From contig CAWGHH010000001.1 of assembly GCA_963822405.1 (NCBI GenBank), forward strand, positions 23,296 through 87,295: DNA of 64,000 nucleotides. Reading direction: 5' to 3'. The stretch is from Candidatus Uhrbacteria bacterium. Lineage in GTDB: Bacteria > Patescibacteriota > Patescibacteriia > UBA9934. Under the pieces are notes generated by a model. The model was not told where the DNA came from and did no database searches. It was given only the letters and a program-made list of their open reading frames with translations. Every line of letters starts with the position of its first letter. The stretch's first letter is position 1. Positions 4,542 to 43,563 of this stretch are shown piece after piece. Made by a program: the position numbers and the translations under genes.

Positions 4542-4714
4542 TCATCGGCCGTTCCTGCTCTGACATACATCACCTCGATTGCTGGGGTTTTCGAACTATT
4601 CCGCTGGCCAGCCTTCGCCGAACCAACCGCGAAGCATAGCAAAAATATGGCCCCTTGTCCATCCCCTTATAGGAGGTGAGACTTGCCAATTTCGCTAATC
4701 TTAGATAAAGTTAT

Positions 4715-5182: not shown

Positions 5183-5187
5183 CAGGC

Positions 5188-5236
5188 TCGCACGCCAGCT
5201 ACCAAAAACGCCGACCCCAAGGGCCGGCGTTCTTAT
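5188..5236. terminator. Bidirectional rho-independent terminator between convergent genes
   Basis: Hairpin aaaaacgccgacccc-aag-ggccggcgttcttattt, with an A-run before and a T-run after. Confidence 0.35.
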
Positions 5237-9802: not shown

Positions 9803-12800
9803 TTATGGAGTGATTGTCGGATCAATAGGAGTCGGATCCACAGGGGAATCGACCGGCGCAACGGGGTCAGCTGGTACAGGATCGATCGTCGCGGGGTCAA
9901 CCGGGGCATCAATCGGTACCGTCAGATCAACTATTGGCGGATCAACGGGCATCGGGTCAACCGGAGCGGGGTCAACTACGCCAGCAACTACTGGTTCTGG
10001 TACAGGAACCGGAGTTGGTTCAGGTGCCGGTGTCACAAGTTGCGGCTCGTGGTCTTTCTCGTAGGCGATCACAAGCCAGTCGACCAAAATGCCGGTCGAT
10101 GCACCCGTGTCATGGATGATGAATCCCCCATTTGAACGATCGGTCACGTAAATCTGACCAGTTGCCCCAGCCGGCGTGACAAGAACTCTGTAAGAAGCAG
10201 TATTTGAAATGATCTGATTAAAGTGCACGTCTACATCAGAGAAGGTAACGGTAGCGATACCATTTTGCAATGTACTTGTCCCCGAGAGCTCAACCGTTCG
10301 CTCGGTGGTCGCTGCTGGATACGTGCTTACCAAGTCACCAGCAAATGATTTAACTTGCTTGATCACTGCGCCCTGTGTTGTGAAGTCACCGTTCTCGGCA
10401 ATTTTCCAGGCTCCACCAATCCCTTCCATCGAACCAACTGACAAAATGTTTCCACCATTCATGTTAAGCGCGCCAGAAAGGTCCAGTCCGTTCGACGAAG
10501 TAATTCCGGATACAGTGTTGCTAACATCCGGCGCCGCGTTCGTTCCACTGCCCGAATAATATGATGCACGAATGAATGCGACAACCTGACCAGCTCCGCT
10601 CGACCATGGCTCCATTGCGTAACCAAGAATCGGCCCAGCCTTAGTCGCTTTCATCGCCACACCCGGAGTCGACGAGGTGGTCAACGGATCGCCAATCGCG
10701 ACTGCGCCATTTTCGTCAGAAACATTCGTTGGCACTCGACCAGACAACGCGATTGGATAGCTTCCCGCCTTGTACTCACCGGCAAGGAAACCTGGACGCG
10801 TCGAAACGACACCAACGAGCTTCTCGTCGTACTTAGTTGTCCCCGACTTCTTTACACCTTGTGCGTGATCTGCAAATACAACTACTTCACCAGCCGCAAG
10901 AGTTTCATCCGATGGGAACATTTCAGCAAAATCATATGAACCAACATTCCAACCAGCGGCGTTTGTTTTCATGTAACCACCACCAACTGACGAATCGTAG
11001 AAAATGTATGCGTTTGTTTGGGTAAGTCCGCGATCTGATGGATACAAATTACCAGACACTAGAATATCACCGCTGTTTGTAATAGAAGCTATTTCGCCAC
11101 CAAGGTTATTCTCAAAGGCTAAACGATATTTGCTAAGCGAGTTGACCTTGGTTCGCAATCCCATGTTTACGTCGATCGAGGTTGCACCATCCCAACCGCT
11201 ACCAGCCAGCAATAAGGCGTGCGAACTCTGAGTCTGAGTCGATGCAGTGGCTCGGGCAAGAGAAGACAATTGAAGATCGCCACTGATTGCCAATGCCGAT
11301 CCGTCTGCAGCTAACATGTTTCCGCCGTACCAAGTGTTGTCGATAAATACCGTAATCGTTGTCATGCCAACGCCATTAAAGCTCGTTAGCGCGCGACCAA
11401 CTACGCGACCAGGAGCCGTTGCCTTCATGGCGTAACCGGGAGTTGAGGAAGCCGTTAGATAGTCGCCCGCAATAATAGGACCGTTCTCACTTGTCACATG
11501 AAGTGGAACTCGACCATCAAGTGCAATAGGCAAAGGGTGCGCGCCCTGGTCTCGAACATTCGTACCAATTGTTTCGTTAGGCGAGGTAGAAACAATGCCG
11601 AAAAGTAAATCAGCGGAAGTGGCACGTGTTAATACTGGCAGTGATTTTGTCACGGTTCCAGACAATATCTCACCGGTAAAAGCGTCACTCTCCTGCGCTT
11701 GATACGTAAACATTGATGACGTGAGCGCAACGATGTCTCCGTTCGTCGGAGTTCCGTCTGTCTCATACCATTCGGCGTAGTCAGCCGGTGCGCCAGAACA
11801 AACAACAAGTGCTCGGAACACCGCGGTAGTATCCGAGTTTGCACCAGAGTGACAGACACCGTTAGTGGTGGCCGTGCCGCCAAAGTTCATTGTAAAATCA
11901 CCAGCAGTTGTCACCTGCCAAGCGGTTCCGCCGATGATTGAGGCAGTTGTACCGGCCGTACTGTTTCCGATAGTAATGACGTCGGTAGTTGAAGCGTTCG
12001 TTGCGATGTTGATCGTGTCGCCACCATTGGATACAACTCCTCCAATATTTGTCGTCTTAGCACCACCACCATCGTTTAATCCTAGAACTGCCGTACCGGT
12101 AAGATCCGTGTTTGCGCCCCTAATCCATGCCGAACTTGATGCATGAAAACTACCAATAGTAATCGAGTCTGCGCTAGTCGCGTCCGTAGCAATCTGTATA
12201 GAATTCGCTCGATCTACATCTACCCCACCTATTTTAATGGTCGAGGAATCAGCCGCGGCATTCAAGAAATTAAAAGTAGCGGAGGTTGACGTAAAGTCTC
12301 CTCCATTCATGGCGATATCACCGGCGTTAGTGATTGACCAGTCATTACCACCAGTCAGAGTAAGGAGTGTAGATGCGTGTGAATTTCCGATAGCAATAGT
12401 GTCCGCAGTTGTGCCTTCTGTTGCTAAGTTTATTGTAGTTGCGGAGTCGGCAATAGAACCAACGGTAATAGTAGAGGAAGAAGTAGTCTCACCCATATAT
12501 ACTGTTCCTCCCTGTATACGAACGTTGTTGCCTCCGTAAAGATCCAGCGTAGATGAGGCATGCATGCTTCCGATGGTAACGTTGTCTGCCGAAGTAGCAT
12601 CTGTCGCTATTCGAACTTGGTTTGCACGATCGCTATCCACACCACCAATATCAATATTAGACGAGTTAGTCGCCAAATCAAGGAAATTAAAGGTGGCGGA
12701 TGTTGAAGTAATGTCTCCGCCGTTTAGCGCCAAATCATCAGCCGATGTAATTAATCCGGCACCGGAAACGCTCCAAGCAGTTCCGCCGGTCAGTGAAAGC

Positions 12801-21492: not shown

Positions 21493-23658
21493 TCAACTTC
21501 CTGGACCTCTGCGGGGTTTTCCGAGAAAATCAAACCAATCGATCCAGCCAATACCAGTGTAGGCCCGCTGAGGCTCGCGGGGCAATCGAGTGTCTTCGTC
21601 GCAAGAGCTACGATACTCATGTCTTGTTCTAGGAGCAGGGAGACACAGCTGAATGGCAGCCTTGGCTTCTTCGATCGTTTCGTACCTATCGTACTTATCC
21701 TGTGGCGGCTTTGTTTGACCGAGAAAATCGCACCAATCAACCCAACCTTTTCCGGCGTAGGTTGTATTGGGATTACTATGCAACCGAGGATCTTGTTTGT
21801 AGACTTTATCGTAGTCCCTTCCCACCTTCGGTACCGGATTCAACAGCTGCACGGCCGCCTTGGCCTCTTCGATCGTTCTGTATTTCTCCTGCGGTCTTGT
21901 CTGACCGAGAAAGTCATACCAATTGATCCAACCTGTATCAGCATAATGTTCATTGGGCGTGACGGGCAACCGAGGATCTTGTTTGTAGACTTTATCGTAG
22001 TCCCTTCCCACCTTCGGTACCGGATTCAACAGCTGCACGGCCGCCTTGGCCTCTTCGATCGTTCTGTATTTCTCCTGCGGTCTTGTCTGACCGAGAAAGT
22101 CATACCAATTGATCCAACCTTTTCCGGCGAATGTTTGACGGGGATTAGACGGCAACCGAGGATCATTCATGTAGACGTCCGAATACTCCGGCTCCGACTT
22201 CGGTACCTGATTCAACAGCTGCACGGCCGCCTTGGCTTCTTCGATCGTTTCGTACTTCTCCTGCGGCCTTGTTTGGCCGAGAAAGTCATACCAATCGATC
22301 CAACCACATTCAGCGTAGATCTTTTGAGGTCCAGACGGCAACCGAGGATCATTCATGTAGACGTCCGAATACTCCGGCCCCGACTTCGGTACCGAGTTCA
22401 ACAGTTGCACAGCCACCTTTGCCTCATGGTAGCTGTAGAAAGGAACACTGAGTCGTTCAAGTACCTCGATGAGATCTCGAACATCCTCACTAAACTCAAT
22501 CATCCAACCCGTGTCGCTCACCACGATTCCCTCGGGTTTTTCGGCTTCACCAATGTGTTTGGTGATTTCGAGCTTGAGTTCGTTGACGGCGATGATGCGG
22601 TCGCAGTTGGCAACGAAGTCGAGGACGGTGATGCGGTGCTTGAGGGGAGTCTTGCGCGTTCCGCGTCCGAGTTGCTGAAGCCAGACCGTCATGCTGTCCG
22701 TTGACCGCAAGAACAGAATGAGCTCGGCATCAGGGATGTCTACGCCCTCGTTCAACTTATCGACAACGAAGATGGTTTTGAGCACTCCATCACGAAAGTC
22801 CTGGAGCGTCTGCGCCATCACTTTGATAGGCAGCTTAGAGTGGTACGGCTTCGCATTCGGGAATTGCGCCAGCACCATATCAAGATGCGTAAGCGAGTTA
22901 CAGAAGATGATGGTCTTCTTCACTCCCTCACCCTCAGTCCTGGCAATGCGCGCAATCTCCTCAAGGCGTTCCTCAAGGAAAATCGTGTCGTCAATTTGCC
23001 GGCGGCTGACGGTTCGATCGCCACCCGTAATCTTACGGATGAGCTCGCGCAGCTTCTTGATGCTGATGTTGTCCGTCATCACCTTGTAATCCACTTGCGC
23101 CAACCAACCGTCCGCAATGCCGCGGGCAAGCGGGTAGCTGTAGACTTCCTCTCCAAAGATGTCGCGAATGTCCTGACCGTCCATACGGTCTGGCGTCGCG
23201 GTCATCCCAAGGAGGAACTTGGGCGTGAAGTGCTCGATCACTTTCTTGTACTGCACCGCCTGCCCGTGGTGGGCCTCGTCAACAATGATGTACGTGAAAG
23301 CGTCCGGCAGAAACTCGTCCAGCATGTTCAACATGGTCTGGAAGGTGACGAAGAGAATCTGCGCGTCGGTATTTTCCGTTTCCGCACTCGTGATGATCCC
23401 CGTTCGGCGAGAACCATCAAATGCTTCGTCGAACTCCTTCCGCGCTTGACGAAGAATATCCGTCGTGTGGGCAAGAAAAAGCAACTGCTCGTTATCCTTC
23501 AAGTGTGTACGTGAGAACCGAGCTGACACCACAGTCTTTCCAAGGCCGGTTGCAAGCACAATAAGCGCGCTCTTGATCTCTTTGGCAACCATGACATCGA
23601 GCGTTTCGAGCACATCGAGCTGGTAGGGACGAAGAAGCTTTTCCGCAGTGATGCTCAT
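21493..23658 (-). CDS. Superfamily-2 helicase (type III restriction res-subunit/DEAD-like ATPase) with five C-terminal tandem repeats of about 63 aa
   Basis: N-terminus: Walker A ATGLGKT, DEAH box IIVDEAHH, motif III GMTATP, motif VI QQLGRGTR. C-terminus: 5 repeats TIEEAKAAVQLLN.VPK...Y..VY..DPRLP..P...YA..GWI.WYDFLGQTRPQEKY. Confidence 0.7.
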   Translation of the reverse strand: MSITAEKLLRPYQLDVLETLDVMVAKEIKSALIVLATGLGKTVVSARFSRTHLKDNEQLLFLAHTTDILRQARKEFDEAFDGSRRTGIITSAETENTDAQILFVTFQTMLNMLDEFLPDAFTYIIVDEAHHGQAVQYKKVIEHFTPKFLLGMTATPDRMDGQDIRDIFGEEVYSYPLARGIADGWLAQVDYKVMTDNISIKKLRELIRKITGGDRTVSRRQIDDTIFLEERLEEIARIARTEGEGVKKTIIFCNSLTHLDMVLAQFPNAKPYHSKLPIKVMAQTLQDFRDGVLKTIFVVDKLNEGVDIPDAELILFLRSTDSMTVWLQQLGRGTRKTPLKHRITVLDFVANCDRIIAVNELKLEITKHIGEAEKPEGIVVSDTGWMIEFSEDVRDLIEVLERLSVPFYSYHEAKVAVQLLNSVPKSGPEYSDVYMNDPRLPSGPQKIYAECGWIDWYDFLGQTRPQEKYETIEEAKAAVQLLNQVPKSEPEYSDVYMNDPRLPSNPRQTFAGKGWINWYDFLGQTRPQEKYRTIEEAKAAVQLLNPVPKVGRDYDKVYKQDPRLPVTPNEHYADTGWINWYDFLGQTRPQEKYRTIEEAKAAVQLLNPVPKVGRDYDKVYKQDPRLHSNPNTTYAGKGWVDWCDFLGQTKPPQDKYDRYETIEEAKAAIQLCLPAPRTRHEYRSSCDEDTRLPREPQRAYTGIGWIDWFDFLGKPRRGPGS
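21782..22119. repeat. Perfect 152-bp direct repeat (186-bp period) inside the helicase C-terminal repeat array
   Basis: The sequence aaccgaggatcttgtttgtagactttatcgtagtcccttcccaccttcggtaccggattcaacagctgcacggccgccttggcctcttcgatcgttctgtatttctcctgcggtcttgtctgaccgagaaagtcataccaattgatccaacct occurs at 21782-21933 and again at 21968-22119. The whole array, about 21600-22450, is made of diverged copies. Confidence 0.7.
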
Positions 23659-26615: not shown

Positions 26616-26703
26616 AAAAGGGCCCGCGTCGGTACGTCGACGCCGGCCTTCTCTATTTTTTACTCGAGCTCGCCCCAACGTTTCCAATTCTGGTATCAAT
26701 GAC

Positions 26704-27526: not shown

Positions 27527-30163
27527 CTATTCAAGTTCACCCCATCTTTTTCCAACCTCGACATCAACCAGTAATGGAACCTCAAGCGACACAACTCCTG
27601 ACATAATCTTTGGAATTTCTTTTTTTGCTTTCTCGACGTCTTCTTCATGAACCTCAAAAACTAATTCGTCGTGCACTTGCAGAAGCATCTTTACTCGAAG
27701 ACCGGATTTGCGAATCCACTCGTCCATTTTGATCATTGCCATTTTGATAATATCGGCGTTTGAACCTTGGACTGGCATATTCATCGCCATTCTTTCGGAG
27801 GCAGCGACGAGTTGAGGGATGCCGGATTGAATGTCGGGCAAATAGCGGCGTCGACCAAACATAGTTTCAACATATCCATCTACTCGCGCTTTCATTTTCG
27901 ATGCGTCGATGAAGGCTGCGATACCGGGATGTACTACAAAGTACTTTTCAATAAACTGTTTAGCTTCCTCGTAACTCATTTTTGTTCGCCGACCAAGGGC
28001 GCGTGCCCCAACTCCGTACAAAATACTAAAGTTCGTCGCTTTTGCATGTTCGCGCTGTTCTTTTGTCACGGCTGACTCGTCGATGCCGTAAATCTCAGCC
28101 GCCGTGCGTTTGTGAATGTCAGCGCCATCATGGAAGGCTCGCAAAAACGACTCGTCCTTACTCATAACTGCGGCGAGTCGAAGTTCGATCTGCGAATAGT
28201 CGGCCGCGATCAAGTCATAACCAGGATCTGAAATAAATGCTTTACGAATTTCACGTCCAAGTTCGGAGCGCACCGGAATATTCTGCATGTTCGGGTTGGT
28301 CGAACTCAACCGACCAGTCGCTGCGACGGTTTGGTTGTAAGTAGTGTGGATTCGACCATCTTTGCCAACAAGTTGGGGCAGGGAATCGGCATAGGTTGAC
28401 TTCAGCTTCGCAATCTCTCGATACTCGCCCATGAGTGGAACAATTTCGTGCTCGTCTTCCAGCTTTTCGAGTTCTTGAGCGGCCGTCGAGTAACCCGTCT
28501 TCGTCTTCTTAATCCCCTTGGTCGGCAACCCAAGGTCGATGAATAGAATCTCGGCCAGCTGAGAAGGGGAGTTAACATTAAATTCTTTACCGGCAAGTTT
28601 GTGAATCTGCTTGGTGAGTTTGTCGATCGTTTTCTCAAATTGATCAGCCAGACTCGTCAGCTTTTCCTTGTCGACCAGTATTCCGTCGAGTTCCATTTTA
28701 AACAGAACCGGAATCAGTGGCATCTCGACTTCCTCGAACAACTTTAACATTTTCTCCTCAACTAATTTCTTCTGAAGAGATTCTTTTAATGGAAAGAGTA
28801 GGGGAACAATTTCACTTATCGTCGCTGTTTCTTCTAGCTGTAACCCGAGATTCTCGTTGAGTACCTCAGCGAATGCAAGTTCACGACCACCTGGCGCAAG
28901 GAGATACGCGGCCACCATGGTGTCAAAAATTGCTTTCTTACGTAGTGACTCGAGCACCTCAATTCCTTGCCTAGCAAATACATGATAAATAGCTTTCAGA
29001 TCATGACCGACGATCATATCCGCTCGTGACAGAACCTCGACTACTTGTTGCAACTCAGTTGCGTTAACAGAATTCGACTTCCAAAATGAAGAACCATCCG
29101 TCAGGATTAACGCCCCCACAGACTCGCCGAACAGATCTTGTTGTTTCTCCTCTAGAAGAATTCCGATCTGTTTCAAATCCAATTCGAACATGCTACCAAC
29201 AGATTTCATTGCACCGGATTTCGCACCCTTCCCCCTCTTAGGGGGAGCAGAGGGGGTCGATGAGATGGTTGGGGTGAGGGTTGCATTCTCATACTTCTTT
29301 ATCAACGTTCGAAACTCAAGATCGCGGAACATCTTCAATAACAGCTCTTTGTCTGGCGTGGTTCTTGTTGCGGACTCGTAAGAAAATTCTTTCAAGGGAA
29401 CGTCACGAACAACGGTCACTAACCGACGCATGAGCTCGACGGTCTTCTCCTGGCCCGAAAACTTTCTTACGAACTTCTCTGGAAGTGATTCTGTTTTCAT
29501 CGCTTCCATGATTCCGTTAACCGAACCATACGCTTTCAATAATTCGAGCGCGCCTTTCTCTCCGATACCCGCTATACCCGGCAAATTATCTGAGGTATCA
29601 CCGATAAGTGTCTTATAATCAATCAATCCGCTCGGCTCAAGTCCGTAGCGTGCCTTCACTGCAGCCTCGTCATAAATTTTTACCTCAGACAAACCTTTCA
29701 CAAAGAAAACAACTTTCGTATTTGGCGAAACAAGCTGCAGTGAGTCAAGATCACCGGTCACGATCAATGTTTCGAGGTCTCCTCTGTCTTCATTCATCTG
29801 TGAAATAGTTCCAATAATGTCATCGGCCTCAAAACCCTTAACATCGAGCGACGGGATTCCGTAGGCTCGAAGAATTTCCTGTATAATAGGAATTTGCGCG
29901 TAGAGTTCATCAGCTTTTTTCTCACGGTGAGCCTTATACGGTGCGTATTCAGCGTTACGAAATGTTCCACCGGGCAAGTCCCACGCCACGGTCATGTAGT
30001 CTGGATGAAAAGTCGACAACATTTTCTCAATCACGTTTGTAAAACCGTAAGCAGCATTCACAACTCGACCATCAGCGGTAGTCAAAGGGGGAATAGCGTG
30101 CCAGGCGCGGTGCAACAAAGCGTTACCATCAAGCACTAAAAATATTTTCTTCTGGTTTGACAT
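27527..30163 (-). CDS. polA: DNA polymerase I
   Basis: 878 aa. 5'-3' exonuclease N-terminus (LVLDGNALLHRAWHA...GFEADDIIGT). Central domain and polymerase palm/fingers (RRxxKxxNFGxxYG as RTKMSYEEAKQFIEKYF; LLQVHDELVFEV). Confidence 0.9.
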   Translation of the reverse strand: MSNQKKIFLVLDGNALLHRAWHAIPPLTTADGRVVNAAYGFTNVIEKMLSTFHPDYMTVAWDLPGGTFRNAEYAPYKAHREKKADELYAQIPIIQEILRAYGIPSLDVKGFEADDIIGTISQMNEDRGDLETLIVTGDLDSLQLVSPNTKVVFFVKGLSEVKIYDEAAVKARYGLEPSGLIDYKTLIGDTSDNLPGIAGIGEKGALELLKAYGSVNGIMEAMKTESLPEKFVRKFSGQEKTVELMRRLVTVVRDVPLKEFSYESATRTTPDKELLLKMFRDLEFRTLIKKYENATLTPTISSTPSAPPKRGKGAKSGAMKSVGSMFELDLKQIGILLEEKQQDLFGESVGALILTDGSSFWKSNSVNATELQQVVEVLSRADMIVGHDLKAIYHVFARQGIEVLESLRKKAIFDTMVAAYLLAPGGRELAFAEVLNENLGLQLEETATISEIVPLLFPLKESLQKKLVEEKMLKLFEEVEMPLIPVLFKMELDGILVDKEKLTSLADQFEKTIDKLTKQIHKLAGKEFNVNSPSQLAEILFIDLGLPTKGIKKTKTGYSTAAQELEKLEDEHEIVPLMGEYREIAKLKSTYADSLPQLVGKDGRIHTTYNQTVAATGRLSSTNPNMQNIPVRSELGREIRKAFISDPGYDLIAADYSQIELRLAAVMSKDESFLRAFHDGADIHKRTAAEIYGIDESAVTKEQREHAKATNFSILYGVGARALGRRTKMSYEEAKQFIEKYFVVHPGIAAFIDASKMKARVDGYVETMFGRRRYLPDIQSGIPQLVAASERMAMNMPVQGSNADIIKMAMIKMDEWIRKSGLRVKMLLQVHDELVFEVHEEDVEKAKKEIPKIMSGVVSLEVPLLVDVEVGKRWGELE

Positions 30164-31137
30164 ATAGGGTTCAGTTTGTGAACATCATACGCGACTCTAT
30201 GGAAAACTTCGATGTATTGATTGTAGGTGCTAGTTTTTCTGGGCTAACCTTGGCACATCATCTCCCTAAACACCTAAAAGTGCTGATTGTTGACGCTAAA
30301 CCAGCCGCCGGCAGCACCGTTGAATCAACCGGCCTCATAACTACGAAGACTCGCGCCGAGTTCTCATCGTTCTTCGCGATAGACCGCTATATCACAAACC
30401 CAATTAGCGCAATCTGTGTAGTTGCTCCAGGCTTTTCCGACTATTTCGTCTCGACTGTTCGTGAACCGTGGATTTATCAGACAGACACAAAAGCACTCAT
30501 CGCCGCACTCGCCGCATCTCTACCACCGAACGTAACTTTGAAGATGGCGACGGCATTCTTGACGACGAACAAGCCAACGAACCCAACTTCAGCAACCATT
30601 CGAACTGTCGGTTCAGAACCAGAAGCAATAACAATTAAGTTCCTGGTTGGCGCAGATGGTGGGCGCTCTAAAGTTGCGTCGACGAATCCGTCACTAAGCA
30701 GAAACTCAAAGTTTCTCTTTGGTTACGAACAAGTATTCTTCGGCGACGTCTTACTTGGTCCAAAACCAGAGGAAACAATTTTTCATTATTGGTTTGGCGA
30801 ATTTTCACTCGGTTATGGCGGATGGTTGTCGCCAACAGTTGTTGATGGCCGCAAAGCATTCCGCATCGGCTTAGCTAAACTCATGAAAGATAGAGGTGAA
30901 GCAAAAACACAAATGGAATTGTTCATGGCTAAGCTGGTCGAACTCGGTCATATTAAAGTCGAAGGCGAAATCACGGCTCCCGGCTATGTTTTCGGCTCGC
31001 ATATTCCCATTGGCGGACCTCGTTTGAAGATCGCCGACGGAAACATGCTCTTAATCGGCGATGCCGCTGGATTCTGTGGTGCGTTTGCCGCCGACGGCAT
31101 CAAGGGCTCGGTAATCTCCGGCAAAGAAGCGGCGTAG
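30157..31137 (+). CDS. FAD-dependent oxidoreductase of the geranylgeranyl-reductase family, N-terminal roughly 75% (interrupted)
   Basis: Rossmann motif DVLIVGASFSGL; GDAAGF near the C-terminus. The ORF ends at a TAG after ...GSVISGKEAA, but the protein continues in the +1 frame. Confidence 0.6.
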   Translation: MTYRVQFVNIIRDSMENFDVLIVGASFSGLTLAHHLPKHLKVLIVDAKPAAGSTVESTGLITTKTRAEFSSFFAIDRYITNPISAICVVAPGFSDYFVSTVREPWIYQTDTKALIAALAASLPPNVTLKMATAFLTTNKPTNPTSATIRTVGSEPEAITIKFLVGADGGRSKVASTNPSLSRNSKFLFGYEQVFFGDVLLGPKPEETIFHYWFGEFSLGYGGWLSPTVVDGRKAFRIGLAKLMKDRGEAKTQMELFMAKLVELGHIKVEGEITAPGYVFGSHIPIGGPRLKIADGNMLLIGDAAGFCGAFAADGIKGSVISGKEAA

Positions 31138-31138
31138 A

Positions 31139-31450
31139 GTCATCGCGCATTACCTCGACGGCCGAACGGAAGCCTTGAAAAAGTTTAGAAAGCGCATGAA
31201 CGAACACGGCGGAATCATGAAGTACTATGTCCGCCAAATGGGCTACCGCGCTATTTGGGACATGATGAAAACGGACAGATCATTCAGAGCAATGTATGAC
31301 ATCATTGCCAGCGAACACGAAACATTCCTGGAACAATTCTGTGACAGTAAAGATCGCCACCGCTCTCTAGTCTGGACCGTTCTCAAACCCCAACACTTCG
31401 AAAAACTCAGCAAGTACGCGTGGTATATCCTGTGCGACCTAGTAAAGTAG
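31139..31450 (+). CDS. C-terminal part of the same geranylgeranyl-reductase-like gene in a shifted frame
   Basis: Frame-2 translation (R)VIAHYLDGRTEALKKFRKRMNEHGGIMKYYVRQ... continues the expected GGR C-terminal helical domain directly after GKEAA. The combined length of about 430 aa is typical for the family. Confidence 0.4.
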   Translation, partial: VIAHYLDGRTEALKKFRKRMNEHGGIMKYYVRQMGYRAIWDMMKTDRSFRAMYDIIASEHETFLEQFCDSKDRHRSLVWTVLKPQHFEKLSKYAWYILCDLVK

Positions 31451-31512: not shown

Positions 31513-31587
31513 GCCCTAGTAGCTCAATGGATAGAGCAGGGCTCTTCTAAGGCCTTGATGTTGGTTCGATTCCAACCTGGGGCACCA
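31513..31587 (+). tRNA. tRNA-Arg (anticodon UCU)
   Basis: GCCCTAG TA GCTCAATGGATAGAGC A GGGCT CTTCTAA GGCCT TGATG TTGGT TCGATTC CAACC TGGGGC A CCA. Confidence 0.75.
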
Positions 31588-31642: not shown

Positions 31643-32293
31643 TTACTCTATGTAGTAACCCGTTCCCCAAGTCATGCCTACGCCACCGGTCTCCTCATTT
31701 TGCGACCAAGTCGCTGGATCAGAATCTACTACTGTATACGTTCCTGGTTCGAGTGTTACGTCCGGCGAAGCTGCCCAATAAACACTTGGTGCACCGCCTT
31801 GGCCATCCGAAGTAGTGACCGCCCAAGGACCAAAAATCTTTCCGTTAGAGTCTTTTAGGCCGAGTGTTCCGCCCGGCGAGCCCTTTGCGTCATTCCAATG
31901 ATAGGTCGTCAAAGTCTTAAGCTGAGCTTTTTTCTCGAGTGTGAAGATGGCCGATGTTCCGCCATTAAACACCGCCATTATGCTGCCGATATTGAATAGC
32001 TCGACTGAAGCCTTATCAGTGGTCGACGCTGGTTCCTCGTACTTCAAAACTTCGCCGGTTGTCACTTCTGCCTTCTTCTGACTTTCCTCATACTGCAAGT
32101 CACTCAACCTTGTCGTTTTCCCATTTTCATCCTCAATAAATATTTGATCCGTCGACTTATTTGGATTCTCTTTCGCATACTCTTCTGCGGCTGCTCGCGT
32201 ACTGCGATAGACCTCATCGCATCCCGCCGTTATTAAAAAAGCGGACACGGCTCCAATTACTAACAAACCCTTACCAAAAGAAAATTTGTTCAT
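31643..32293 (-). CDS. Putative lipoprotein
   Basis: Signal peptide with lipobox LITAGC; otherwise unknown. Confidence 0.5.
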   Translation of the reverse strand: MNKFSFGKGLLVIGAVSAFLITAGCDEVYRSTRAAAEEYAKENPNKSTDQIFIEDENGKTTRLSDLQYEESQKKAEVTTGEVLKYEEPASTTDKASVELFNIGSIMAVFNGGTSAIFTLEKKAQLKTLTTYHWNDAKGSPGGTLGLKDSNGKIFGPWAVTTSDGQGGAPSVYWAASPDVTLEPGTYTVVDSDPATWSQNEETGGVGMTWGTGYYIE

Positions 32294-32362: not shown

Positions 32363-32438
32363 TGGGGTGGCTAACGGGAATCGAACCCGTACTAAAGGCA
32401 CCACAAGCCTTTGTGATAACCGTTTCACTATAGCCACC
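32363..32438 (-). tRNA. tRNA-His (anticodon GUG) with an encoded G-1
   Basis: The reverse complement is G-GTGGCTA TA GTGAAACGGTTATCAC A AAGGC TTGTGGT GCCTT TAGTA CGGGT TCGATTC CCGT TAGCCAC C CCA. The extra 5' G can pair with the discriminator C73. Confidence 0.75.
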
Positions 32439-33143: not shown

Positions 33144-33188
33144 CGGCTGTGAACTTCCCAGGCACTCTCTCGCGTCGACCATAATCAA

Positions 33189-33752
33189 ATGGTCGCCGAA
33201 TTACTCGCTTTGGAGGTTCCCATGTTCGCATTGTTCCTGCTTGGTTCCGCGTTCGCCGGTGACGCATTTGTTCAGCTCCAGGCTGATACTGCGGTTGCTC
33301 TGGCTGATAGAGTTGTCGACGAGCGCGTCAAAGTGCTCATCGAGAAACCACTCAACGAAAAAGTGAGTTTGAGCGTCTTCACGCTCGTGAGTCCGGCATA
33401 TGGCGAGCTGATCGTCGGTCCGACACTTCACGTCCAGAAACTGGCACTCAATGTCAGTATTGGGATCGAAACCGCGGACATGCCACTCCGTGGTGAAGTG
33501 TACATTTTGTGGGCTAATGATCGCTACACGTTCCTCGCCTCCGCTGAAACCGGTGGCTCCGGTCCTTGGTACGTCGGGTATGCTATCCGCACTATCGGAC
33601 ATCTCACCGTCGGCGTGTTGACGCAGAGGTTCGACGGTATCGGGCCACGAATCGGCGTCACGTCACACGGCTTCGAGCTGTGGACCTCGCCGATGTACGA
33701 CTACGAAGACGGTACAACGAACATCGTCTCCGGCATCAGCTGGATTCCGTGA
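33189..33752 (+). CDS. Secreted hypothetical protein, at the start of a GC-rich island
   Basis: Signal peptide MFALFLLGSAFAG (an internal start at about 33222); beta-rich composition. A competing antisense ORF 33201..33602 is shorter and looks like junk. Confidence 0.35.
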   Translation: MVAELLALEVPMFALFLLGSAFAGDAFVQLQADTAVALADRVVDERVKVLIEKPLNEKVSLSVFTLVSPAYGELIVGPTLHVQKLALNVSIGIETADMPLRGEVYILWANDRYTFLASAETGGSGPWYVGYAIRTIGHLTVGVLTQRFDGIGPRIGVTSHGFELWTSPMYDYEDGTTNIVSGISWIP

Positions 33753-33873
33753 CATACAGGCAACGCTCGCGTTCCCCACAAAGCCCTGACCGCAATCGTC
33801 GGGGTTTTTCTTTTGCATTGAATAAAGACCGACCCCATCCGAGCGTGCTCGGGCGGGGTCGTTAGGTAAAATT

Positions 33874-34638
33874 CTATTTCGCTCGCACGATGTGGCACGG
33901 CCAGCAGTCATAACCACCCGTAGAAGCGGTGGACACGTAGATCGTGTATGTGGAATCCGACCGTGGCTCAAACCGCTGGTTCATCGGATCTGCGTCGCAC
34001 GTTCGGTAGTCATGTTGGAAATTCAACGTCATTTTCCGAGCACCGGCAACAATGCTGGTCGTCGTCGAGGTGATGAGCGCCCTACACTCAGGTGGGTGTG
34101 ACGGATTCCCCCTCAACAAGTCTTGCATGACTACAAACAGCATGGCCGCCGACGGAACACGCAACCGAATCTTGTACTCTCGCTCGTAGGTCCTGAGGAC
34201 CGTCTCGAGGTTCTCCGTAGCCCCGAAACCGATTCCCTTAACCGGCAAGCAGAAGATGATGTCACCCTCATGAACCATCTCGTCGCCCACGAGCGGCGAA
34301 TGTTCACCCGCAATCCGCGGACCGTCACCGGCCTCCAGGTCACGAGCCGAAGCCGCATGGAGAAATGACCGATCCTTCAGAACTCGCCAAGCCACGTTAC
34401 CGTCCCAACCCAGGATTTTGGCCGGCACGGCATACTTTCGGTACATGGCCTTCAGATGGTCCGGTACGGATTCGAGAGAAAGCGGAGTCGCCCATGGGGC
34501 AGAAACCAACTCTTCCCGAAAGTTCTCGGCCCACCTCCTCACGTCTGCCGGGTGCTGAACGATCAGGAGCAAATCCCTATCATCCGTCTCCCTCAGAAAC
34601 TCAGCCAACTCCCGAGGCGTTACATACTCACGTCCCAT
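33874..34638 (-). CDS. Hypothetical protein, GC-rich island
   Basis: 254-aa ORF with no motif recognised. Confidence 0.35.
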   Translation of the reverse strand: MGREYVTPRELAEFLRETDDRDLLLIVQHPADVRRWAENFREELVSAPWATPLSLESVPDHLKAMYRKYAVPAKILGWDGNVAWRVLKDRSFLHAASARDLEAGDGPRIAGEHSPLVGDEMVHEGDIIFCLPVKGIGFGATENLETVLRTYEREYKIRLRVPSAAMLFVVMQDLLRGNPSHPPECRALITSTTTSIVAGARKMTLNFQHDYRTCDADPMNQRFEPRSDSTYTIYVSTASTGGYDCWPCHIVRAK

Positions 34639-34760
34639 GACTACTCCTTCTGTCCGTGTTCGGACTACAAACGGCTTGTGCCGCAGGGAAGGCGGATTGA
34701 GTCCGGCTTCAAAAATAATTTATCAACTTTCACAAATATTGGCAAACATAAGCTAATTTC

Positions 34761-36287
34761 TTGACACTGCTCAAAATTTGGCCAACAATCGCCCTAGTTC
34801 ATTCGAACTGGGAGGTTTCCATGGATCAGCCGTTTGTTCTTTGTGGCACGATCAATGACCGTCTTCATGGTGGAGTTAGCATCACCAAAGAAGAACGCGG
34901 GATCATCAATCATCGCAGTTTTCTTCGACTTCACAACATTCGCCAGCTCGGTAATCTGTATCTAGTGTTCCCATCGGCAACCCACACCCGTTTCGAGCAC
35001 TCGATCGGAGTGATGGATCTGGCGGATCGGCTGTTCTTGGGTGCTAAACTCGAAAGCAAAAAGTCCGCTGACTCGCTGGCGCCGCTCGACACGGCTGGGC
35101 CGGGCGTAGGAGTGCGATTGTATGAGCTCGACAGCAAGGTCGAAGAACAGTTGCGTCGAACACTACGAATTTGCGCACTGGCTCATGACCTTGGCCACGG
35201 GCCGTTCTCACACAACTTCGAGCCCTTCACGCCAAAGGTGGAGGAAATTGCGAAGTTACTTGAAGACCCACGTCTAGCAGTCCTTCTGCCGTACCGTGAA
35301 GCGGTGTTGGCGGCGGACAAGCACGGTCGCGTCAAACACGAGGCGATCTCCGTCATTCTGTTCACCATGCTCTGGCTCGACAACTGCCCGGGCGACAGTG
35401 AAATGCCCGCGGCTTTGGCATCAGTACTTTTGGGCGCCAAGCCTGAAGGTGCGGCGCCCGAACTCAAGCCGTGGATTCCGTTCATTCGAGACATCGTCAG
35501 CTCGGCGCCGATTGACGCTGACCGCATGGACTACTTGGAACGGGATTCGCGGGGAGTCGGAACCAGCTACGGGCTCTTCGACCATTCACGGATCTTCAAG
35601 TCAGTGGTGTGCGCAAAAAGTATTGATGACGATTCGTTCCGGCTCGGCTGGCGCGAAAATGGCCTGGCAACGATTGACCACTTCGTCCATGCCCGCTACC
35701 AGATGTTCCGGCAGATCTACGTTCACAAGACGTACCGCGCCATGGAACTTATGCTGGACGAGATCGGTCGGGAAGTAGATACGAACAACTTGTCCCTCGT
35801 GGACACGTCGTCCGTAGACGCACTTGTGAATTCCTATGAACGCCTGACTGATGACCACTTCGTCAGCCTGATCTCCGGGAATACCCCGAGTGATTTGCAG
35901 AAGAACGCGAAGGTCATGAAGCTTGGGCGGGCCTTCAAGAACCGACAGCTGTGGAAACGAGTGGTCGAGTGTGATCTGCGAGATGACGTGGAACACATTC
36001 GCGAAGAACTGAAGAAGAACCACCCGGAAGCAATCCTCATCGCGGACAGTCGGCCACTGAACGCCATGAAGGACATGAAAAAAGCGACCTACCTCATGAG
36101 GAAGACCGCGAACGATCGGTACGTGTACGCCGGCGCCGAAGCCTGGCTTGAGGCCTCAGTGATCCTCAAGGCACTCACCACAACGCCAGAGTCAGCAACT
36201 CGCATCTACCTGGCGCAAACGGGTGAGTCAGACCTCTTGCAGCAATTGCGCCACGAAGCAACCGCCATCATCCTCCGAAAACGTTAG
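34761..36287 (+). CDS. SAMHD1/dGTPase-family HD-domain dNTP triphosphohydrolase-like protein
   Basis: PFVLCGTINDRLHGGVSITKEERGIINHRSFLRLHNIRQLGNLYLVFPSATHTRFEHSIGV aligns almost position-for-position with the SAMHD1 block [50 protein letters not shown]. Further down, LAHDLGHGPFSH (HD motif) and DADRMDYLERDS. The true start is probably the internal Met of MDQPFV at about 34821. Confidence 0.65.
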   Translation: MTLLKIWPTIALVHSNWEVSMDQPFVLCGTINDRLHGGVSITKEERGIINHRSFLRLHNIRQLGNLYLVFPSATHTRFEHSIGVMDLADRLFLGAKLESKKSADSLAPLDTAGPGVGVRLYELDSKVEEQLRRTLRICALAHDLGHGPFSHNFEPFTPKVEEIAKLLEDPRLAVLLPYREAVLAADKHGRVKHEAISVILFTMLWLDNCPGDSEMPAALASVLLGAKPEGAAPELKPWIPFIRDIVSSAPIDADRMDYLERDSRGVGTSYGLFDHSRIFKSVVCAKSIDDDSFRLGWRENGLATIDHFVHARYQMFRQIYVHKTYRAMELMLDEIGREVDTNNLSLVDTSSVDALVNSYERLTDDHFVSLISGNTPSDLQKNAKVMKLGRAFKNRQLWKRVVECDLRDDVEHIREELKKNHPEAILIADSRPLNAMKDMKKATYLMRKTANDRYVYAGAEAWLEASVILKALTTTPESATRIYLAQTGESDLLQQLRHEATAIILRKR

Positions 36288-36335
36288 CACTGCGCAAAGC
36301 CCCGACGGCACTCGTCGGGGCTTATCTTTTTACTT

Positions 36336-37181
36336 TTACTTTTTCTTCCTCGGCAACAGTTTCACTTTCTTCTGCACAAGTTTATGAATGTGTTCTTCGG
36401 CCGGAAGGTCCTCTGGCATAGTTCCATCGAGCTTTTCGATCGTCTCGCGAACAATACGACCAACCCGGCGGTGCGTGGCACTTGCCATTTCTTCGTTCCG
36501 GATATTGTCTTTCTTGAGAAGGGCGTCTGTCTGAGTAATGCGGAATAAATTCGCCGCAAGCTCCTCCGAGCCCGCATAATCAAGTAGATCGCCTTTCGCA
36601 ATTCCTTTCTTTTTCTTGATTTGTTCTTGGGTCAGATTATAAAGACCCAAATAACCCGCATTATTGAACTTCCCAAAATTTTCAACGCCCGCAGCCTTAG
36701 CGGTCTTCGCCAGCCGTACATTTTTATGAGAAACATCTTGTCGAATGAACATTCGCTTACCGTCATCATCAAGCATCTCAAACAACTCTTGTTTGCGAGT
36801 CTGCACGGCGAAATAGGTTTGCGCAAAAGCGATCTCAGGTTTTCGTGGATCGCCGTTTTGGGCGACGAGATAACAAGCAAAACGAGAGAGATGATAATCG
36901 AGCAGTTTTCTCTTTGTATTTGAACCGATATCAACCATTTTACCGGCGCCGGTAAAATGGTCTTCGATTGCCTGTTGCGTAGACACGCAAACAGCCTTCG
37001 CTCGAAGAATTGCTTCTTGAAACTTCTGCCACTTGGCATACCCAAGTAAAGGCATCAGCTCTCTCGCCTCCCAATATTCAAAACCGTTCTCGTCGACTTT
37101 CTTGATCGACTCGAAATCCTTATGTAGCGAAACCGGCACAATGTTATTGTTCGGCATATGTTCGTATAGTAGCATAAACAA
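36336..37181 (-). CDS. dinD: DNA-damage-inducible protein D-like (DinD; Bro-N-related N-terminus)
   Basis: [38 protein letters not shown] and [15 protein letters not shown] closely match E. coli DinD ([52 protein letters not shown]). Confidence 0.7.
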   Translation of the reverse strand: [281 protein letters not shown]

Positions 37182-37211: not shown

Positions 37212-38141
37212 CTATTTTGCCTTCTTCTTATCATGAAACTCTTTGTACACGCGTCCGAGTTCCTTATCCGTAATGTGCGTGTAAACCTGCGTCGTCGTAA
37301 TCGACTCATGGCCGAGGAGGGATTGCACCGCGCGGATGTCGGCGCCGTTGCGTAGGAGGTCGGTCGCGTAGGTGTGACGCAATGTGTGTGGGGTGACACG
37401 CTTAGTGATGCCGGCCAGGCGGGCGTAGCGGTCGACGATGCGTTGCACCGAGCGGGGAGTGAGCGGATGAGAAGTGGTCGATGAGTGCCGAGCGCGGTCG
37501 TGTCGAACAAATAAGAATGGGGAAGTGTCTTTGCGATGATCGAGATATGCTTTGATCGCTCGTCGGGCATCCTCCGACAAATATACAACGCGATGTTTCT
37601 TGCCTTTACCGAGCACCGTGAACTCGTCGCGCTTCAGATTGATGTTATCGATCTTCAAGGTCGATGCCTCAGACACACGCGTGCCGGTCGAAAAGAGCAG
37701 CTCGAGCAACGCCTTGTCACGGTAACCAACAATTGTCGGGTCACTTAGAGGACCAGCTCGAAAACGCTCGAACTCCTCAGACTCGAGGAAACTCACGTTA
37801 CGAGTGCCCTGTTTGGCAAGCTCGATTTTCTCCGCGGCCATACTCTTCACATCACGCTTGGCGAGGTACTTAAGGAATGATCGAAGAGCGATTAAGTGAT
37901 AGTTCTGCGTATTCTTCTTCAAGTTTGTCTCTTCTCGACCAGAAATGTCCCGATTTAGGTGCAAACGGTAATTTCGCACCATCTCCATCGTAATTTCCTG
38001 TGGATTAGGGTGCTTTGCCCAATCCGAAAACCTGGTTAAGTAAAAATGGTAGTTCTTAATTGTCTTATCAGACCGTCCGCGTTCAATTTCAAGATATTCA
38101 AGGAATTCTTTAATATATTTGGCAAGTATATTCTTTGGCAT
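37212..38141 (-). CDS. xerC: Tyrosine recombinase, XerC/XerD family
   Basis: N-terminal SAM-like domain. Catalytic residues in order: R (LLFSTGTRVSE), K (LGKGKK), HxxR (HTLRHTYAT) and the Tyr nucleophile (LLGHESITTTQVYTH). Confidence 0.75.
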   Translation of the reverse strand: MPKNILAKYIKEFLEYLEIERGRSDKTIKNYHFYLTRFSDWAKHPNPQEITMEMVRNYRLHLNRDISGREETNLKKNTQNYHLIALRSFLKYLAKRDVKSMAAEKIELAKQGTRNVSFLESEEFERFRAGPLSDPTIVGYRDKALLELLFSTGTRVSEASTLKIDNINLKRDEFTVLGKGKKHRVVYLSEDARRAIKAYLDHRKDTSPFLFVRHDRARHSSTTSHPLTPRSVQRIVDRYARLAGITKRVTPHTLRHTYATDLLRNGADIRAVQSLLGHESITTTQVYTHITDKELGRVYKEFHDKKKAK

Positions 38142-38440
38142 AGGGGAGGTTGTGTCGTAAATTATACACCACTCAGTGTGCGGACAACTGGTTGACTATT
38201 CCTATAATTTGGCTTACTCTACCTGTTCTGCGACTAAAACCCGCAGTACACACGCTCTTTTTCACCCCTCAGCATCTTCGGAGCCACCGTGGCTTTGCCT
38301 CCCCGCCGCAGAAACCCAGACATTGAACGCTGGCTATCGCTCTACCACCTTGGTGGAGAAGACGGGCTCTCGCTCGTCACCAGATCTCCAATCGAATTCC
38401 CCCTTGAGTTCACCGCCACCAACATCCCGCCGGAGGTTAT

Positions 38441-38652
38441 CGATGAAAAACAGGATTCCAAACGATCCAAGTGAAGTCGGATACGGTACTGACGTGCCCC
38501 GCGATAGGGCATCTGATCTCCCGCCGCCCCCTCCAAGCCGGCCGGAAGTCTCGCCCTGCGATGGAAACGTGATCGTCGCGAAAAGTCCCGACGGCAGCGT
38601 CATGTACACCGGTTTCCGCGACTCCGACGGACTCGACGAGCTGTTCGTGTAG
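38441..38652 (+). CDS. Small Pro-rich hypothetical protein (70 aa) in a GC-rich patch
   Basis: MKNRIPNDPSEVGYGTDVPRDRASDLPPPPPSRPEV... (internal start of the tracked ORF 38176..38652). Confidence 0.25.
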
Positions 38653-38653
38653 C

Positions 38654-38833
38654 ATGGAAGCAAAAGACAAAGCCGTTCTCTTCAATCCGGCACTTTCCGA
38701 AGACAAGGCGAATGCCATTAAAGCCTGGATGAAAGCCACGTATCCACCAGAGGAAACGAAGGCTCCGGCAAAAACCACGCCAGACTCTGTATTCGCCAGC
38801 CCTTACGGACCGCCGGACGGTGACGCCTACTAA
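38654..38833 (+). CDS. Small hypothetical protein (59 aa)
   Basis: MEAKDKAVLFNPALSEDKANAIKAWMKATYPPEETKAPAKTTPDSVFASPYGPPDGDAY. Its ATG lies 1 nt after the previous stop. Confidence 0.2.
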   Translation: MEAKDKAVLFNPALSEDKANAIKAWMKATYPPEETKAPAKTTPDSVFASPYGPPDGDAY

Positions 38834-38857
38834 AGAAGCCGCCCGCGTGCGACTTAT

Positions 38858-38898
38858 GACCTTTAACCCTGTACCTAACGGTATAGGGTTCTTTTTTT
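38858..38898 (+). terminator. Rho-independent terminator
   Basis: aaccctgtacctaacggtatagggttcttttttt. Confidence 0.4.
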
Positions 38899-39012
38899 GA
38901 CACTTTACCCCTTTTACTCTATTCTTCCCCTGCATTCTTTTATATAGCGTTAGCCCCGGTTTATGGCTTGAGCAAGCCGTTTACTGAGACGATCGCATGA
39001 ATCCATATTGAT

Positions 39013-42339: not shown

Positions 42340-43563
42340 ATGCAATCCCTACACATACCCATCCAAGATAACCCAACCCGCCAAAAAATCTGGCGGGTTG
42401 TGGTATTTGTGGCTCCACTTCTGGCCACTTCTATGATTTCCGCCTTAGCTTTTCGCGCATACACCGTCCTAGACACACTTTCTTCTTTTGCGCCCGCCAG
42501 CGCCGAGCTCGGAATCAGAATCATCAAAACTCCAAGCACTGCAAACGTTTTAGAGGATAAATTTCACGGAACGACACTCTTTCCAAACGCACCTTTTACC
42601 CTCGACGAAATTTCTGAGTGGTCAAAACGAGGAAGCGAAGTATTCTTGAATGAAACCGGCATTGTCGGTGTCGCGATTGCCGGCAAGGTACCCGAGGACA
42701 CGCTAACCGAATCTCGAGCCCTTGGTTTTATCGTAAAGCAACGCTTTGGTGGCACATATATTGGAACTGAGGAACCGGCGACAATCAAACTAGCTGTTCG
42801 CCTTCCTATAGCCACCATGTTGCCCTGGTATAACGGCGAGGCATACTCGGCTAAAAACCATATCTCTGCCCCTCTGCGTCTAAACGAACAGTCGCTAACG
42901 ATCAGTGGGCTCGGTCGAACAGGTGGTTCAAGCGCTACAACCACCGACCAATCATTAGCCAACGTCAGCATTTCATCAGAAGAGGCGCAAAACCTCTTAG
43001 GCTTTGATGTTCCTCTAATTTTTCCTGGCTTACGAGCTCTCGAAGAACAAATGATCGAACATGGATTTTCAATGTCCCTTGGTCAAGATTCAGAAGGAAC
43101 GCCTTACTCGTTTAACATTCCAGGCGGGAATCTCTCTCGAGAAGACCTAGAAAACGGGGTCAGCGAACTATATTACACAAGCAGTCTAATCACGGTTCCG
43201 TTCAAGGATGTCTACACTAGCCTGGACGAACTGGTCTCAAACTCAACGGCCAAGCCGGTAACAACAAGCGATCCGTCGGCAACTATTACAACAATTGGCG
43301 ACAATACGGGCACACTGGTTCGAGCCGCAGAAACCACGCACGGCCTGATTTTAACCAATAGAGCAGTAAACATTGGAGATTCTTCGACCAACGGAACCGG
43401 CAGCAGCACCTGCTTGGCACGCGCCAATCAGTGGGTTTCGTTTATAGGCCTAAATGGACTCCTTCCAGCACGTTTGTCCACGCCAGGCATGACAATCATC
43501 CAAAAACTGCTCTCAAGCCAAGAAATTGCTTTTTCGAACCACCGAACTCGGGTCTGCTGGTGA
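42340..43563 (+). CDS. Hypothetical membrane-anchored protein
   Basis: N-terminal TM IWRVVVFVAPLLATSMISALAF; Ser/Thr-rich; no motifs. Confidence 0.4.
   Translation: MQSLHIPIQDNPTRQKIWRVVVFVAPLLATSMISALAFRAYTVLDTLSSFAPASAELGIRIIKTPSTANVLEDKFHGTTLFPNAPFTLDEISEWSKRGSEVFLNETGIVGVAIAGKVPEDTLTESRALGFIVKQRFGGTYIGTEEPATIKLAVRLPIATMLPWYNGEAYSAKNHISAPLRLNEQSLTISGLGRTGGSSATTTDQSLANVSISSEEAQNLLGFDVPLIFPGLRALEEQMIEHGFSMSLGQDSEGTPYSFNIPGGNLSREDLENGVSELYYTSSLITVPFKDVYTSLDELVSNSTAKPVTTSDPSATITTIGDNTGTLVRAAETTHGLILTNRAVNIGDSSTNGTGSSTCLARANQWVSFIGLNGLLPARLSTPGMTIIQKLLSSQEIAFSNHRTRVCW

Follow-up and report, generated by a model that had tools for sequence, protein, structure and literature searches.

An acquired SAMHD1/EF1143-class dNTP triphosphohydrolase gene in a variable slot of a Candidatus Uhrbacteria genome

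Background

The HD-domain deoxynucleoside triphosphate (dNTP) triphosphohydrolases include human SAMHD1, the bacterial enzymes EF1143 and Aq_1910, and a set of bacterial dGTPases through which dNTP depletion has a precedent as an antiphage defence (Tal et al. 2022; Clover; Vibrio Vdg). We analysed a gene of the SAMHD1/EF1143 class, hereafter the HD gene, in the metagenome-assembled genome of a Candidatus Uhrbacteria bacterium (Patescibacteria). It lies in a stretch of 64,000 nucleotides (assembly GCA_963822405.1, contig CAWGHH010000001.1, positions 23,296 to 87,295 of the forward strand) that we call the window, and whose positions are used throughout. A previous sequence-only reading had proposed that the gene belongs to a horizontally acquired defence islet.

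34821..36287, plus strand: HD gene, third gene of a GC-rich block, encoding a SAMHD1/EF1143-class HD-domain dNTP triphosphohydrolase of 488 aa (PF01966 and, weakly, PF19276; PDB, AlphaFold2 and Foldseek comparisons; GC content at third codon positions, GC3, 0.67)

The best structural and sequence matches of the HD protein are EF1143, a dNTPase of Enterococcus faecalis (PDB 2o6i/3irh/4lrl), and Aq_1910 (PDB 2hek). These bacterial enzymes are, like the HD protein, single HD-domain polypeptides of ~450-490 aa without a SAM domain and with the same metal and catalytic residues. They differ in sequence (~21% identity in the structural alignment), and the HD protein has ~40 extra residues after the first HD helix (region 72-110). 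EF1143-type genes appear to be chromosomal residents of Firmicutes, whereas the HD gene is rare, patchy and horizontally moved.

The whole catalytic core of human SAMHD1, an enzyme with an antiviral precedent, can also be aligned with the HD protein, for which the same conversion of dNTPs to deoxynucleosides and triphosphate (PPPi) is predicted. Residues H167, H206, D207, D311, H210, H215, H233, E234, R164, Y315, D319, R366 and Y374 of SAMHD1 are conserved, the equivalent of L150 is retained, and K312 is replaced by Arg. Unlike SAMHD1, the HD protein has no SAM domain, and three residues of an allosteric site are changed (see below).

The defensive dGTPases (the Sp-dGTPase of Tal et al., CloA of Clover and Vibrio Vdg) are HD-superfamily dNTP triphosphohydrolases too, and they make up single- or two-gene nucleotide-depletion defences in variable regions. 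Tal et al. found that theirs cannot be aligned directly to SAMHD1; the HD protein can, which places it in a different clade. It scores only 23 bits over ~100 residues with the PADLOC dGTPase model and 20 bits with TIGR01353. The defensive enzymes are hexamers or octamers, whereas the nearest structural relatives of the HD protein are tetramers. Finally, Clover requires a nucleotidyltransferase (NTase) partner and the HD protein has none: we found no NTase domain in any of its neighbours.

An intact SAMHD1/EF1143-class enzyme

The sequence-only reading had listed a signal-peptide protein, a 254-aa protein and a 508-aa HD protein in the block. All three genes are present, but the length of the last one had to be corrected. 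The 508-aa form begins at a TTG (34761) lying within the -35 box of the promoter TTGACA-17-AACAAT, whereas the ATG at 34821 is preceded by a ribosome-binding site (GGGAGG). We therefore rejected the longer form and took the 488-aa protein, which agrees with public gene calls and with all homologues.

The resemblance to SAMHD1 had been noticed in the N-terminal 60 residues. It is real and reaches much further. Searched with phmmer against the PDB, the HD protein matched Aq_1910 (1.5e-25), EF1143 (8e-23) and SAMHD1 (~1e-22). A family profile built from 65 homologues matched only the SAMHD1 clade of the PDB (4e-72 to 1e-42), and its positions 5-483 aligned to human SAMHD1 in a single stretch (E = 1e-57). 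The same profile matched no Dgt-type chain at E ≤ 0.001. The AlphaFold2 (AF2) model of the protein was of high confidence (pLDDT 95.3, pTM 0.94), and its best Foldseek matches were again EF1143 and SAMHD1, with the C-terminal lobe included (TM-score 0.61-0.70, probability 1.00).

The metal-binding quartet H60, H122, D123 and D234 (H167, H206, D207 and D311 in SAMHD1) is invariant in the 65 homologues. The catalytic residues H126, H131, H173 and E174 and the substrate-binding residues R57, R235, Y238, D242, R292 and Y300 are invariant or nearly so. The HD protein is an intact, full-length enzyme of the SAMHD1/EF1143 class and, given the conservation of its metal, catalytic and substrate residues, it should be active. 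Release of deoxynucleoside and PPPi from dNTPs is very probably its chemistry. Judging by homology, the reaction would in all likelihood take place at a His/Asp-bound metal centre in an allosterically controlled oligomer.

The regulation of the enzyme is probably not SAMHD1-like in detail. In the guanine-specific allosteric site 1, residues D137/Q142/R145 of SAMHD1 are replaced by N30/L35/H38, both in the HD protein and in its 75% identical relative P0002; the D, Q and R are kept in 37, 37 and 44 of the 65 homologues, respectively. These replacements make activation by GTP/dGTP, as in SAMHD1, doubtful. The HD protein is a further member of a well-known enzyme family, here mobile and accessory, whose occurrence in bacteria is unsurprising.

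Horizontal acquisition

We compared the locus with that of the closest genome (L003: PNPase 96.6% identical, XerD 95.4%, NYN protein 95%, rpsO 97.7%), with those of the next relatives (L004 and L006/L007: PolA 82-84%, XerD ~90%, core proteins 82-91%, rpsO and NYN higher), and with 80 further metagenome loci sampled through XerD (54-81% identity), in which 10 kb were checked. Besides the HD gene, the locus contains the following genes.

32363..32437, minus strand: tRNA-His(GTG), conserved left anchor of the slot (ARAGORN, Rfam); adjoins tRNA-Arg in L004 and L006
32517..33143, plus strand: YedJ-like HD phosphohydrolase of 208 aa (HD208), variable cargo (PF01966 2.4e-8; NF007515 1.5e-30, below cut-off; GC3 0.51)
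33189..33752, plus strand: secreted-looking small protein, first block gene (187 aa from the first start, 176 aa from ATG 33222; GC3 0.65)
33874..34638, minus strand: 254-aa ORFan divergent from the HD gene, second block gene (GAAGGAG 6 nt before the ATG; GC3 0.67)
36336..37181, minus strand: DinD-like Bro-N protein of 281 aa, variable cargo (NF008573 4e-97, 325 bits, above cut-off; PADLOC PDC-S13 2.7e-103; PF02498)
37212..38141, minus strand: XerC/D-type tyrosine recombinase, conserved right anchor (90-95% identical in close relatives)

The GC-rich block consists of exactly three adjacent genes (33189-36287). Its GC content is 0.554, against 0.491 in the remaining window, which corresponds to z = 2.97 among all 3.1-kb segments of the 64-kb stretch and is equalled only by a patch at ~3.0-6.3 kb. 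The GC3 of its three open reading frames (ORFs), 0.65 for the 176/187-aa protein and 0.67 for the two others, exceeds the mean of 50 long ORFs of the window (0.524, sd 0.069). The shift covers genes on both strands and ends at gene boundaries: HD208 and DinD (GC3 0.49) lie outside it and are host-like. Composition, by both windowed GC and GC3, is therefore as non-uniform as the sequence-only reading had it. A second, independent assembly (Logan) has both junctions in an identical layout (99.95% identity over 12.1 kb), which rules out that the block arose as an assembly chimera. The two GC-rich neighbours came from a source similar to that of the HD gene, and there is no supporting sign that their products cooperate functionally with the HD protein.

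The HD gene and dinD occupy the same place in L003 and are both absent from L004 and L006/L007. In these next relatives, the interval between tRNA-His and xerD contains a bestrophin-like gene in one case, and genes for an extracytoplasmic function (ECF) sigma factor, a 460-aa protein, an M23 peptidase and unknowns in the other. None of the 80 XerD loci encodes the HD protein, DinD, HD208, the 176-aa or the 254-aa protein within 10 kb; in the nearest of them (L017, L019) polA is found 0.85-1.5 kb after xerD. The HD gene is hence not a Dgt-type housekeeping paralogue conserved at this locus. With its mosaic cargo, the slot, bounded by tRNA-His on one side and by the core xerD-rpsO-NYN-pnp block on the other, acts like a hot spot of recombination.

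The HD protein is rare: a collection of 5.8 billion proteins holds ~15 clusters at ≥40% identity, the sole match in the GTDB representative set is a 29% identical homologue in a metagenome-assembled genome of Bdellovibrionales, and on plasmids we found no close relatives, only homologues of 23-32% identity. Homologues of any degree that we detected number ~640. Several homologues do not match the composition of their flanks. GC3 is higher in the gene than around it in L003 (0.63 vs 0.44-0.55), L014 (0.75 vs 0.45-0.48, between TGT and ClpB), L177 (0.84 vs 0.54) and L178 (0.76 vs 0.57-0.62), and lower in L015 (0.56 vs 0.76-0.80). Four high-GC genomes (L008, L010, L012 and L016; GC3 0.8-0.95) encode homologues of 38-45% identity that match the composition of their flanks. 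Horizontal acquisition of the HD gene, and thus its accessory status, is well supported by the composition, by the absence from L004, L006/L007 and the 80 loci, and by the mismatches elsewhere. The gene would most likely have arrived from a higher-GC relative; such a donor is plausible since the XerD-syntenic loci include high-GC genomes (up to 0.65).

When the window is compared with L003, the ratio of nonsynonymous to synonymous divergence (dN/dS) of the HD gene is 0.11, at dS 1.6. The values are 0.02-0.04 with dS 0.8-1.1 for core genes, and 0.16 with dS 1.8 for u407, a syntenic gene of low conservation. The 75% identity of the two HD proteins is compatible with orthology and relaxed constraint. 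The GC3 of 0.63-0.67 persists in both genes despite near-saturated synonymous divergence, which could possibly reflect separate imports of related alleles or a gene-specific bias.

The slot resembles tRNA-linked genomic islets by its adjacent tRNA, atypical composition, presence/absence polymorphism and cargo that differs between genomes. It differs from them in that its cargo is a mosaic of two composition classes and in that no mobile-element machinery is visible: there is no island-specific integrase, and a search for att-like direct repeats found none longer than 19 nt and none in flanking position. XerC/D, which had been counted as an element of the islet, was rejected as its integrase. 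It is a conserved core gene of the lineage; about half of the 80 loci, those of sufficient length, have it in linkage with rpsO-NYN-pnp. Its protein cluster includes a member named 'Patescibacteria group'. We also rejected a prophage remnant. The identity of the HD protein to PHROG 35128 and to 13 'phage' records is only 28-34%, the best of these records (a Klebsiella prophage) has the homologue outside the integrase and among host-type genes, and the IMG/VR matches are giant-virus genes (23-33% identity).

A gene with its own control region

Four elements surround the genes of the block.

34761..34789, plus strand: sigma-70-like promoter of the HD gene, TTGACA-17-AACAAT (10/12 consensus match)
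34797..34808, plus strand: leader motif GTTCATTCGAAC (family consensus roughly GTTCNTTCAC), found upstream of 7/10 homologues
33780..33808, plus strand: hairpin resembling a terminator, downstream of the 176-aa gene; degenerate version of the one at 36297
36297..36323, either strand: hairpin with a 12-bp stem between the convergent HD and dinD genes, which can be read as a terminator on both strands

The promoter is conserved in L003 and L178, and its -35 box alone also in L177, L012, L010 and L014. In the form TTGACA-17-AAYAWT followed by GTTCNTTCAC, promoter and leader are shared by the window (34761-34808), L003 (~175-270) and L178 (~3960-4010); L177, L012, L008 and L010 have them in part. 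They are thus conserved between genes whose proteins are only ~45% identical. This exceeds what protein identity would lead one to expect and points to a gene that takes its control region along when it moves. In the window the leader motif is a palindrome, GTTCATTCGAAC, with two matches where 0.46 are expected, and it may be an operator for some regulator. The leader of L003 is interrupted by a 45-nt palindromic insert (CCTGCC/GGCAGG). A riboswitch or structured leader was rejected: the Rfam matches in the window are tRNAs only, and the leaders of six homologues have no shared RNA fold.

The hairpin AAGCCCCGACGG-N4-CGTCGGGGCTT (36297-36323 and 33781-33807) is confined to the variable slot within the 64-kb window. 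It is also found behind unrelated slot cargo in L003 (1764-1788 and 4044-4068) and in L006 (~2540-2570); it may point to a shared donor or be carried along with the cargo genes. We rejected integron-like cassettes, as the hairpin is an ordinary intrinsic terminator (12-bp stem, 3-4 nt loop, T-run) and not an attC site, and as the recombinase is a core Xer protein. With its own promoter, leader and terminator, the HD gene is a self-contained unit.

A possible role in phage defence or dNTP pool regulation

The benefit of the enzyme to its host is tentatively a phage defence by dNTP depletion, an idea based on mobility and precedent only. The HD protein would limit the supply of dNTPs to replicating phage DNA, as a single-gene nucleotide-depletion defence that would work like SAMHD1 and the bacterial dGTPases while standing outside the proven bacterial defence family. 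We counted the accessory, rare and repeatedly transferred status of the gene in favour of defence. The sole defence-flavoured neighbour is the convergent dinD gene, whose match to PDC-S13 (2.7e-103) concerns a candidate system only. Further slot contents in L003 are a PemK toxin-antitoxin pair and an insertion sequence (IS) transposase end. The homologue in L015 is accompanied by a CYTH protein, and HNH and type I HsdR genes are found close by.

Several observations weigh against defence. The PADLOC dGTPase model PDLC02374 matches residues 48-154 only (1.1e-5, 23 bits), and the TIGR01353 score of 20.3 bits is far below the cut-off of 152.35; the HD protein is not a member of the known defensive dGTPase family. 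For bacterial enzymes of the EF1143/SAMHD1 clade, we found no paper that reports a defence phenotype. The homologues of 38-45% identity, with native composition, are encoded amid housekeeping genes (FtsH/S1, RNase Y/TruB/IF-2, UMP-kinase-like, ProRS), and so is the L014 copy (TGT/ClpB/RecJ), although its composition is foreign there. Housekeeping surroundings prevail among the homologue contexts. Only one of ten independent contexts adjoins a known defence system, and none of the ten alternative cargo proteins of the slot in relatives has a PADLOC match. A conserved partner gene was sought and rejected, as the neighbours of the ten homologues have nothing in common. DinD is ~70-74% identical and frameshifted in L003, and absent from the other relatives. 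The 'phage' homologues are the giant-virus genes mentioned above or, in the Klebsiella prophage record, probably host flank. Finally, the dN/dS of 0.11 indicates purifying selection without a signal of an arms race. The acquired SAMHD1-class enzyme of the proposed islet is real, while its defence label is reasonable but unproven; the precedent invoked for it holds for the dGTPases and, as far as we found, does not extend to the clade of the HD protein.

Two homologues have neighbours worth recording. In L015 (2006-4234) the 37% identical homologue is directly followed by the CYTH (triphosphate-tunnel) protein, both GC3-poor relative to their flanks, and the PPPi that the dNTPase releases could be removed by the CYTH enzyme. 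In L178 (732-5530) the 45% identical homologue is divergently encoded beside Ku and LigD (non-homologous end-joining).

A role as an accessory regulator of the dNTP pool is also plausible, if a little less so. The same enzyme would trim or balance dNTPs outside replication and return deoxynucleosides to salvage, the host would be a genome-reduced symbiont living on scavenged nucleotides, and transfer would reflect the spread of a useful metabolic gene among Patescibacteria. Such a role has been proposed for EF1143, Thermus TT1383 and Caulobacter Dgt, and the closest solved bacterial relatives of the HD protein are pool-regulating dNTPases. It would fit the four homologues of native composition amid housekeeping genes, nucleotide-related neighbours such as an AA_kinase/UMP-kinase-like protein in L012 and a HAD-type DxDGV protein in L016, and slot cargo that is otherwise not defence-like. 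It would also fit purifying selection on a gene kept since the split of the window from L003 (dS ~0.9-1.6). However, the gene is remarkably rare and patchy for housekeeping, with its ~15 clusters and its absence from 80/80 syntenic relatives; it was repeatedly transferred as a single gene, with a composition mismatch in five recipient genomes; and one homologue adjoins HNH and type I restriction genes. Between dNTP-depletion defence and pool homeostasis or salvage, we lean slightly towards defence.

It is improbable that the HD gene and the 254-aa ORF form a two-gene unit, in which the latter would be a regulator, sensor or antitoxin-like brake of the HD protein, comparable to CloA/CloB in Clover, the precedent for a dNTPase with a regulatory partner. 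The two genes have equal GC3 (0.67) and share a divergent promoter region of 182 bp (34639-34820), and the 254-aa ORF looks coding in composition and is preceded by a strong ribosome-binding site. Yet it is a true ORFan and thus shows no co-occurrence: searches returned no homologue, neither from a collection of 5.8 billion clustered proteins nor, with phmmer, from 1.84 billion representatives. No NTase or other domain was detected in it with the Pfam, PADLOC, PHROG and NCBIfam libraries, and its single-sequence AF2 model was unusable (pLDDT 35). With two exhaustive homology searches, four profile libraries and the model all empty, we assign it no function. Moreover, L003 has the IS transposase end instead of the ORFan upstream of the conserved promoter, and the other HD homologues share no neighbour.

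Equally improbable is an old resident gene, lost in relatives, whose composition would reflect gene-specific codon bias or chance: the window has further GC-rich patches, a GC3 of 0.63-0.67 at dS 1.6 is odd for an ameliorating import, and the more distant L012 has a 45% identical homologue ~3 kb from xerD, but three adjacent genes on both strands share a shift that ends at gene boundaries, outgroups at several depths lack the gene (L017 and L019 among them), and the homologues of four other genomes mismatch their flanks.

Neighbouring genes

The order of genes along the locus is polA (27527-30163, minus strand), FAD oxidoreductase, tRNA-Arg (31513-31587), a 216-aa ORF, tRNA-His, HD208, the 176/187-aa gene, the 254-aa ORF (minus), the HD gene, dinD (minus), xerC/D (minus), small ORFs, rpsO, the NYN protein gene and the PNPase gene. 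The tRNA-His, HD hydrolase (the YedJ-like HD208), DinD, XerC/D and small ORFs that the sequence-only reading had placed in the flanks are all there, but the 'GC-rich patch' to the right was overstated (GC ~0.51).

HD208 was found neither in L004 and L006 nor in the 80 syntenic loci. The 176-aa length of the secreted-looking protein is that called in public assemblies. This protein has no Pfam match and no known domain, and its family comprises only eight protein clusters, whose named members are all 'Patescibacteria group'. A homologue of 48% identity is encoded beside xerD in L006/L007 (GC3 0.71), and another, P0133, of 82% identity is encoded on a 36-kb JGI contig.

The spacer between xerD and rpsO (38150-38950) is not conserved in DNA relative to L003, L004 and L006, except for ~100 nt at each end. 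Its small ORFs have an odd GC content by codon position (GC2 0.57), which makes them probably non-coding. The 216-aa lipoprotein-like ORF (31643-32293, minus strand) lies between tRNA-Arg and tRNA-His. These tRNAs are adjacent in L004 and L006, so the site of the ORF is a second small variable slot.

The FAD oxidoreductase is split into two ORFs (30157-31137 and 31175-31450) by a G at 31134 that is extra relative to the independent assembly; it is a single 423-aa ORF in L001 and has ~416 aa in relatives. The extra G is either an assembly error or a strain-level frameshift. Further differences between the two assemblies are a 4-nt indel (26642-26645) and one single-nucleotide difference in the 176-aa gene (33684). 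The syntenic gene after that of PNPase encodes a 407-aa protein (42340-43563; 10236-11459 in L003). The window and L003 share 95-98% identity in their core proteins but only 63% in this one (dN/dS 0.16); its gene is a resident that evolves rapidly.

Other features of the window

The GC-rich patch at ~3000-6300 is stronger than the block (GC up to 0.62). It includes two ORFs without Pfam match (3552-4679 and 4715-5182), one with GC1 0.79 and the other with GC3 0.77, and may be another foreign insert. A 721-aa helicase (21493-23658, minus strand; ResIII, SWI2/SNF2, Helicase_C) has a GC3 of 0.63, above the norm of the window, and four C-terminal copies of the PF14882 'integrase repeat unit'. A 1674-aa ORF without Pfam match (9803-14827, minus strand) is followed by an 816-aa protein with CarboxypepD_reg-like domains; both are probably giant surface proteins.

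Significance

The finding is modest either way, with a genomic setting that is interesting and not extraordinary. If the HD protein is a pool regulator, its gene would be an ordinary accessory metabolic gene, and the main interest would lie in the slot next to xerD and tRNA-His, which illustrates cleanly what a recombination hot spot of a streamlined genome looks like. If it serves defence, it would be a bacterial antiviral enzyme of the clade of human SAMHD1, to which the known bacterial dGTPase defences are only distant relatives. It would then also add to the immune genes of bacteria of the Candidate Phyla Radiation (CPR), a list that to our knowledge is sparse.

A broader and rather unlikely version is that a dNTPase of the SAMHD1 clade proper forms a mobile, single-gene, anti-phage nucleotide-depletion module in the ultra-small CPR/Patescibacteria. 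As a cassette of promoter, leader, gene and terminator, it would pass from high-GC lineages to mid-GC ones, with a non-guanine allosteric trigger (N/L/H for D/Q/R) and with the ORFan possibly as a lineage-specific regulator. Were this so, the SAMHD1 lineage itself would have been put to antiviral use as far back as bacteria.

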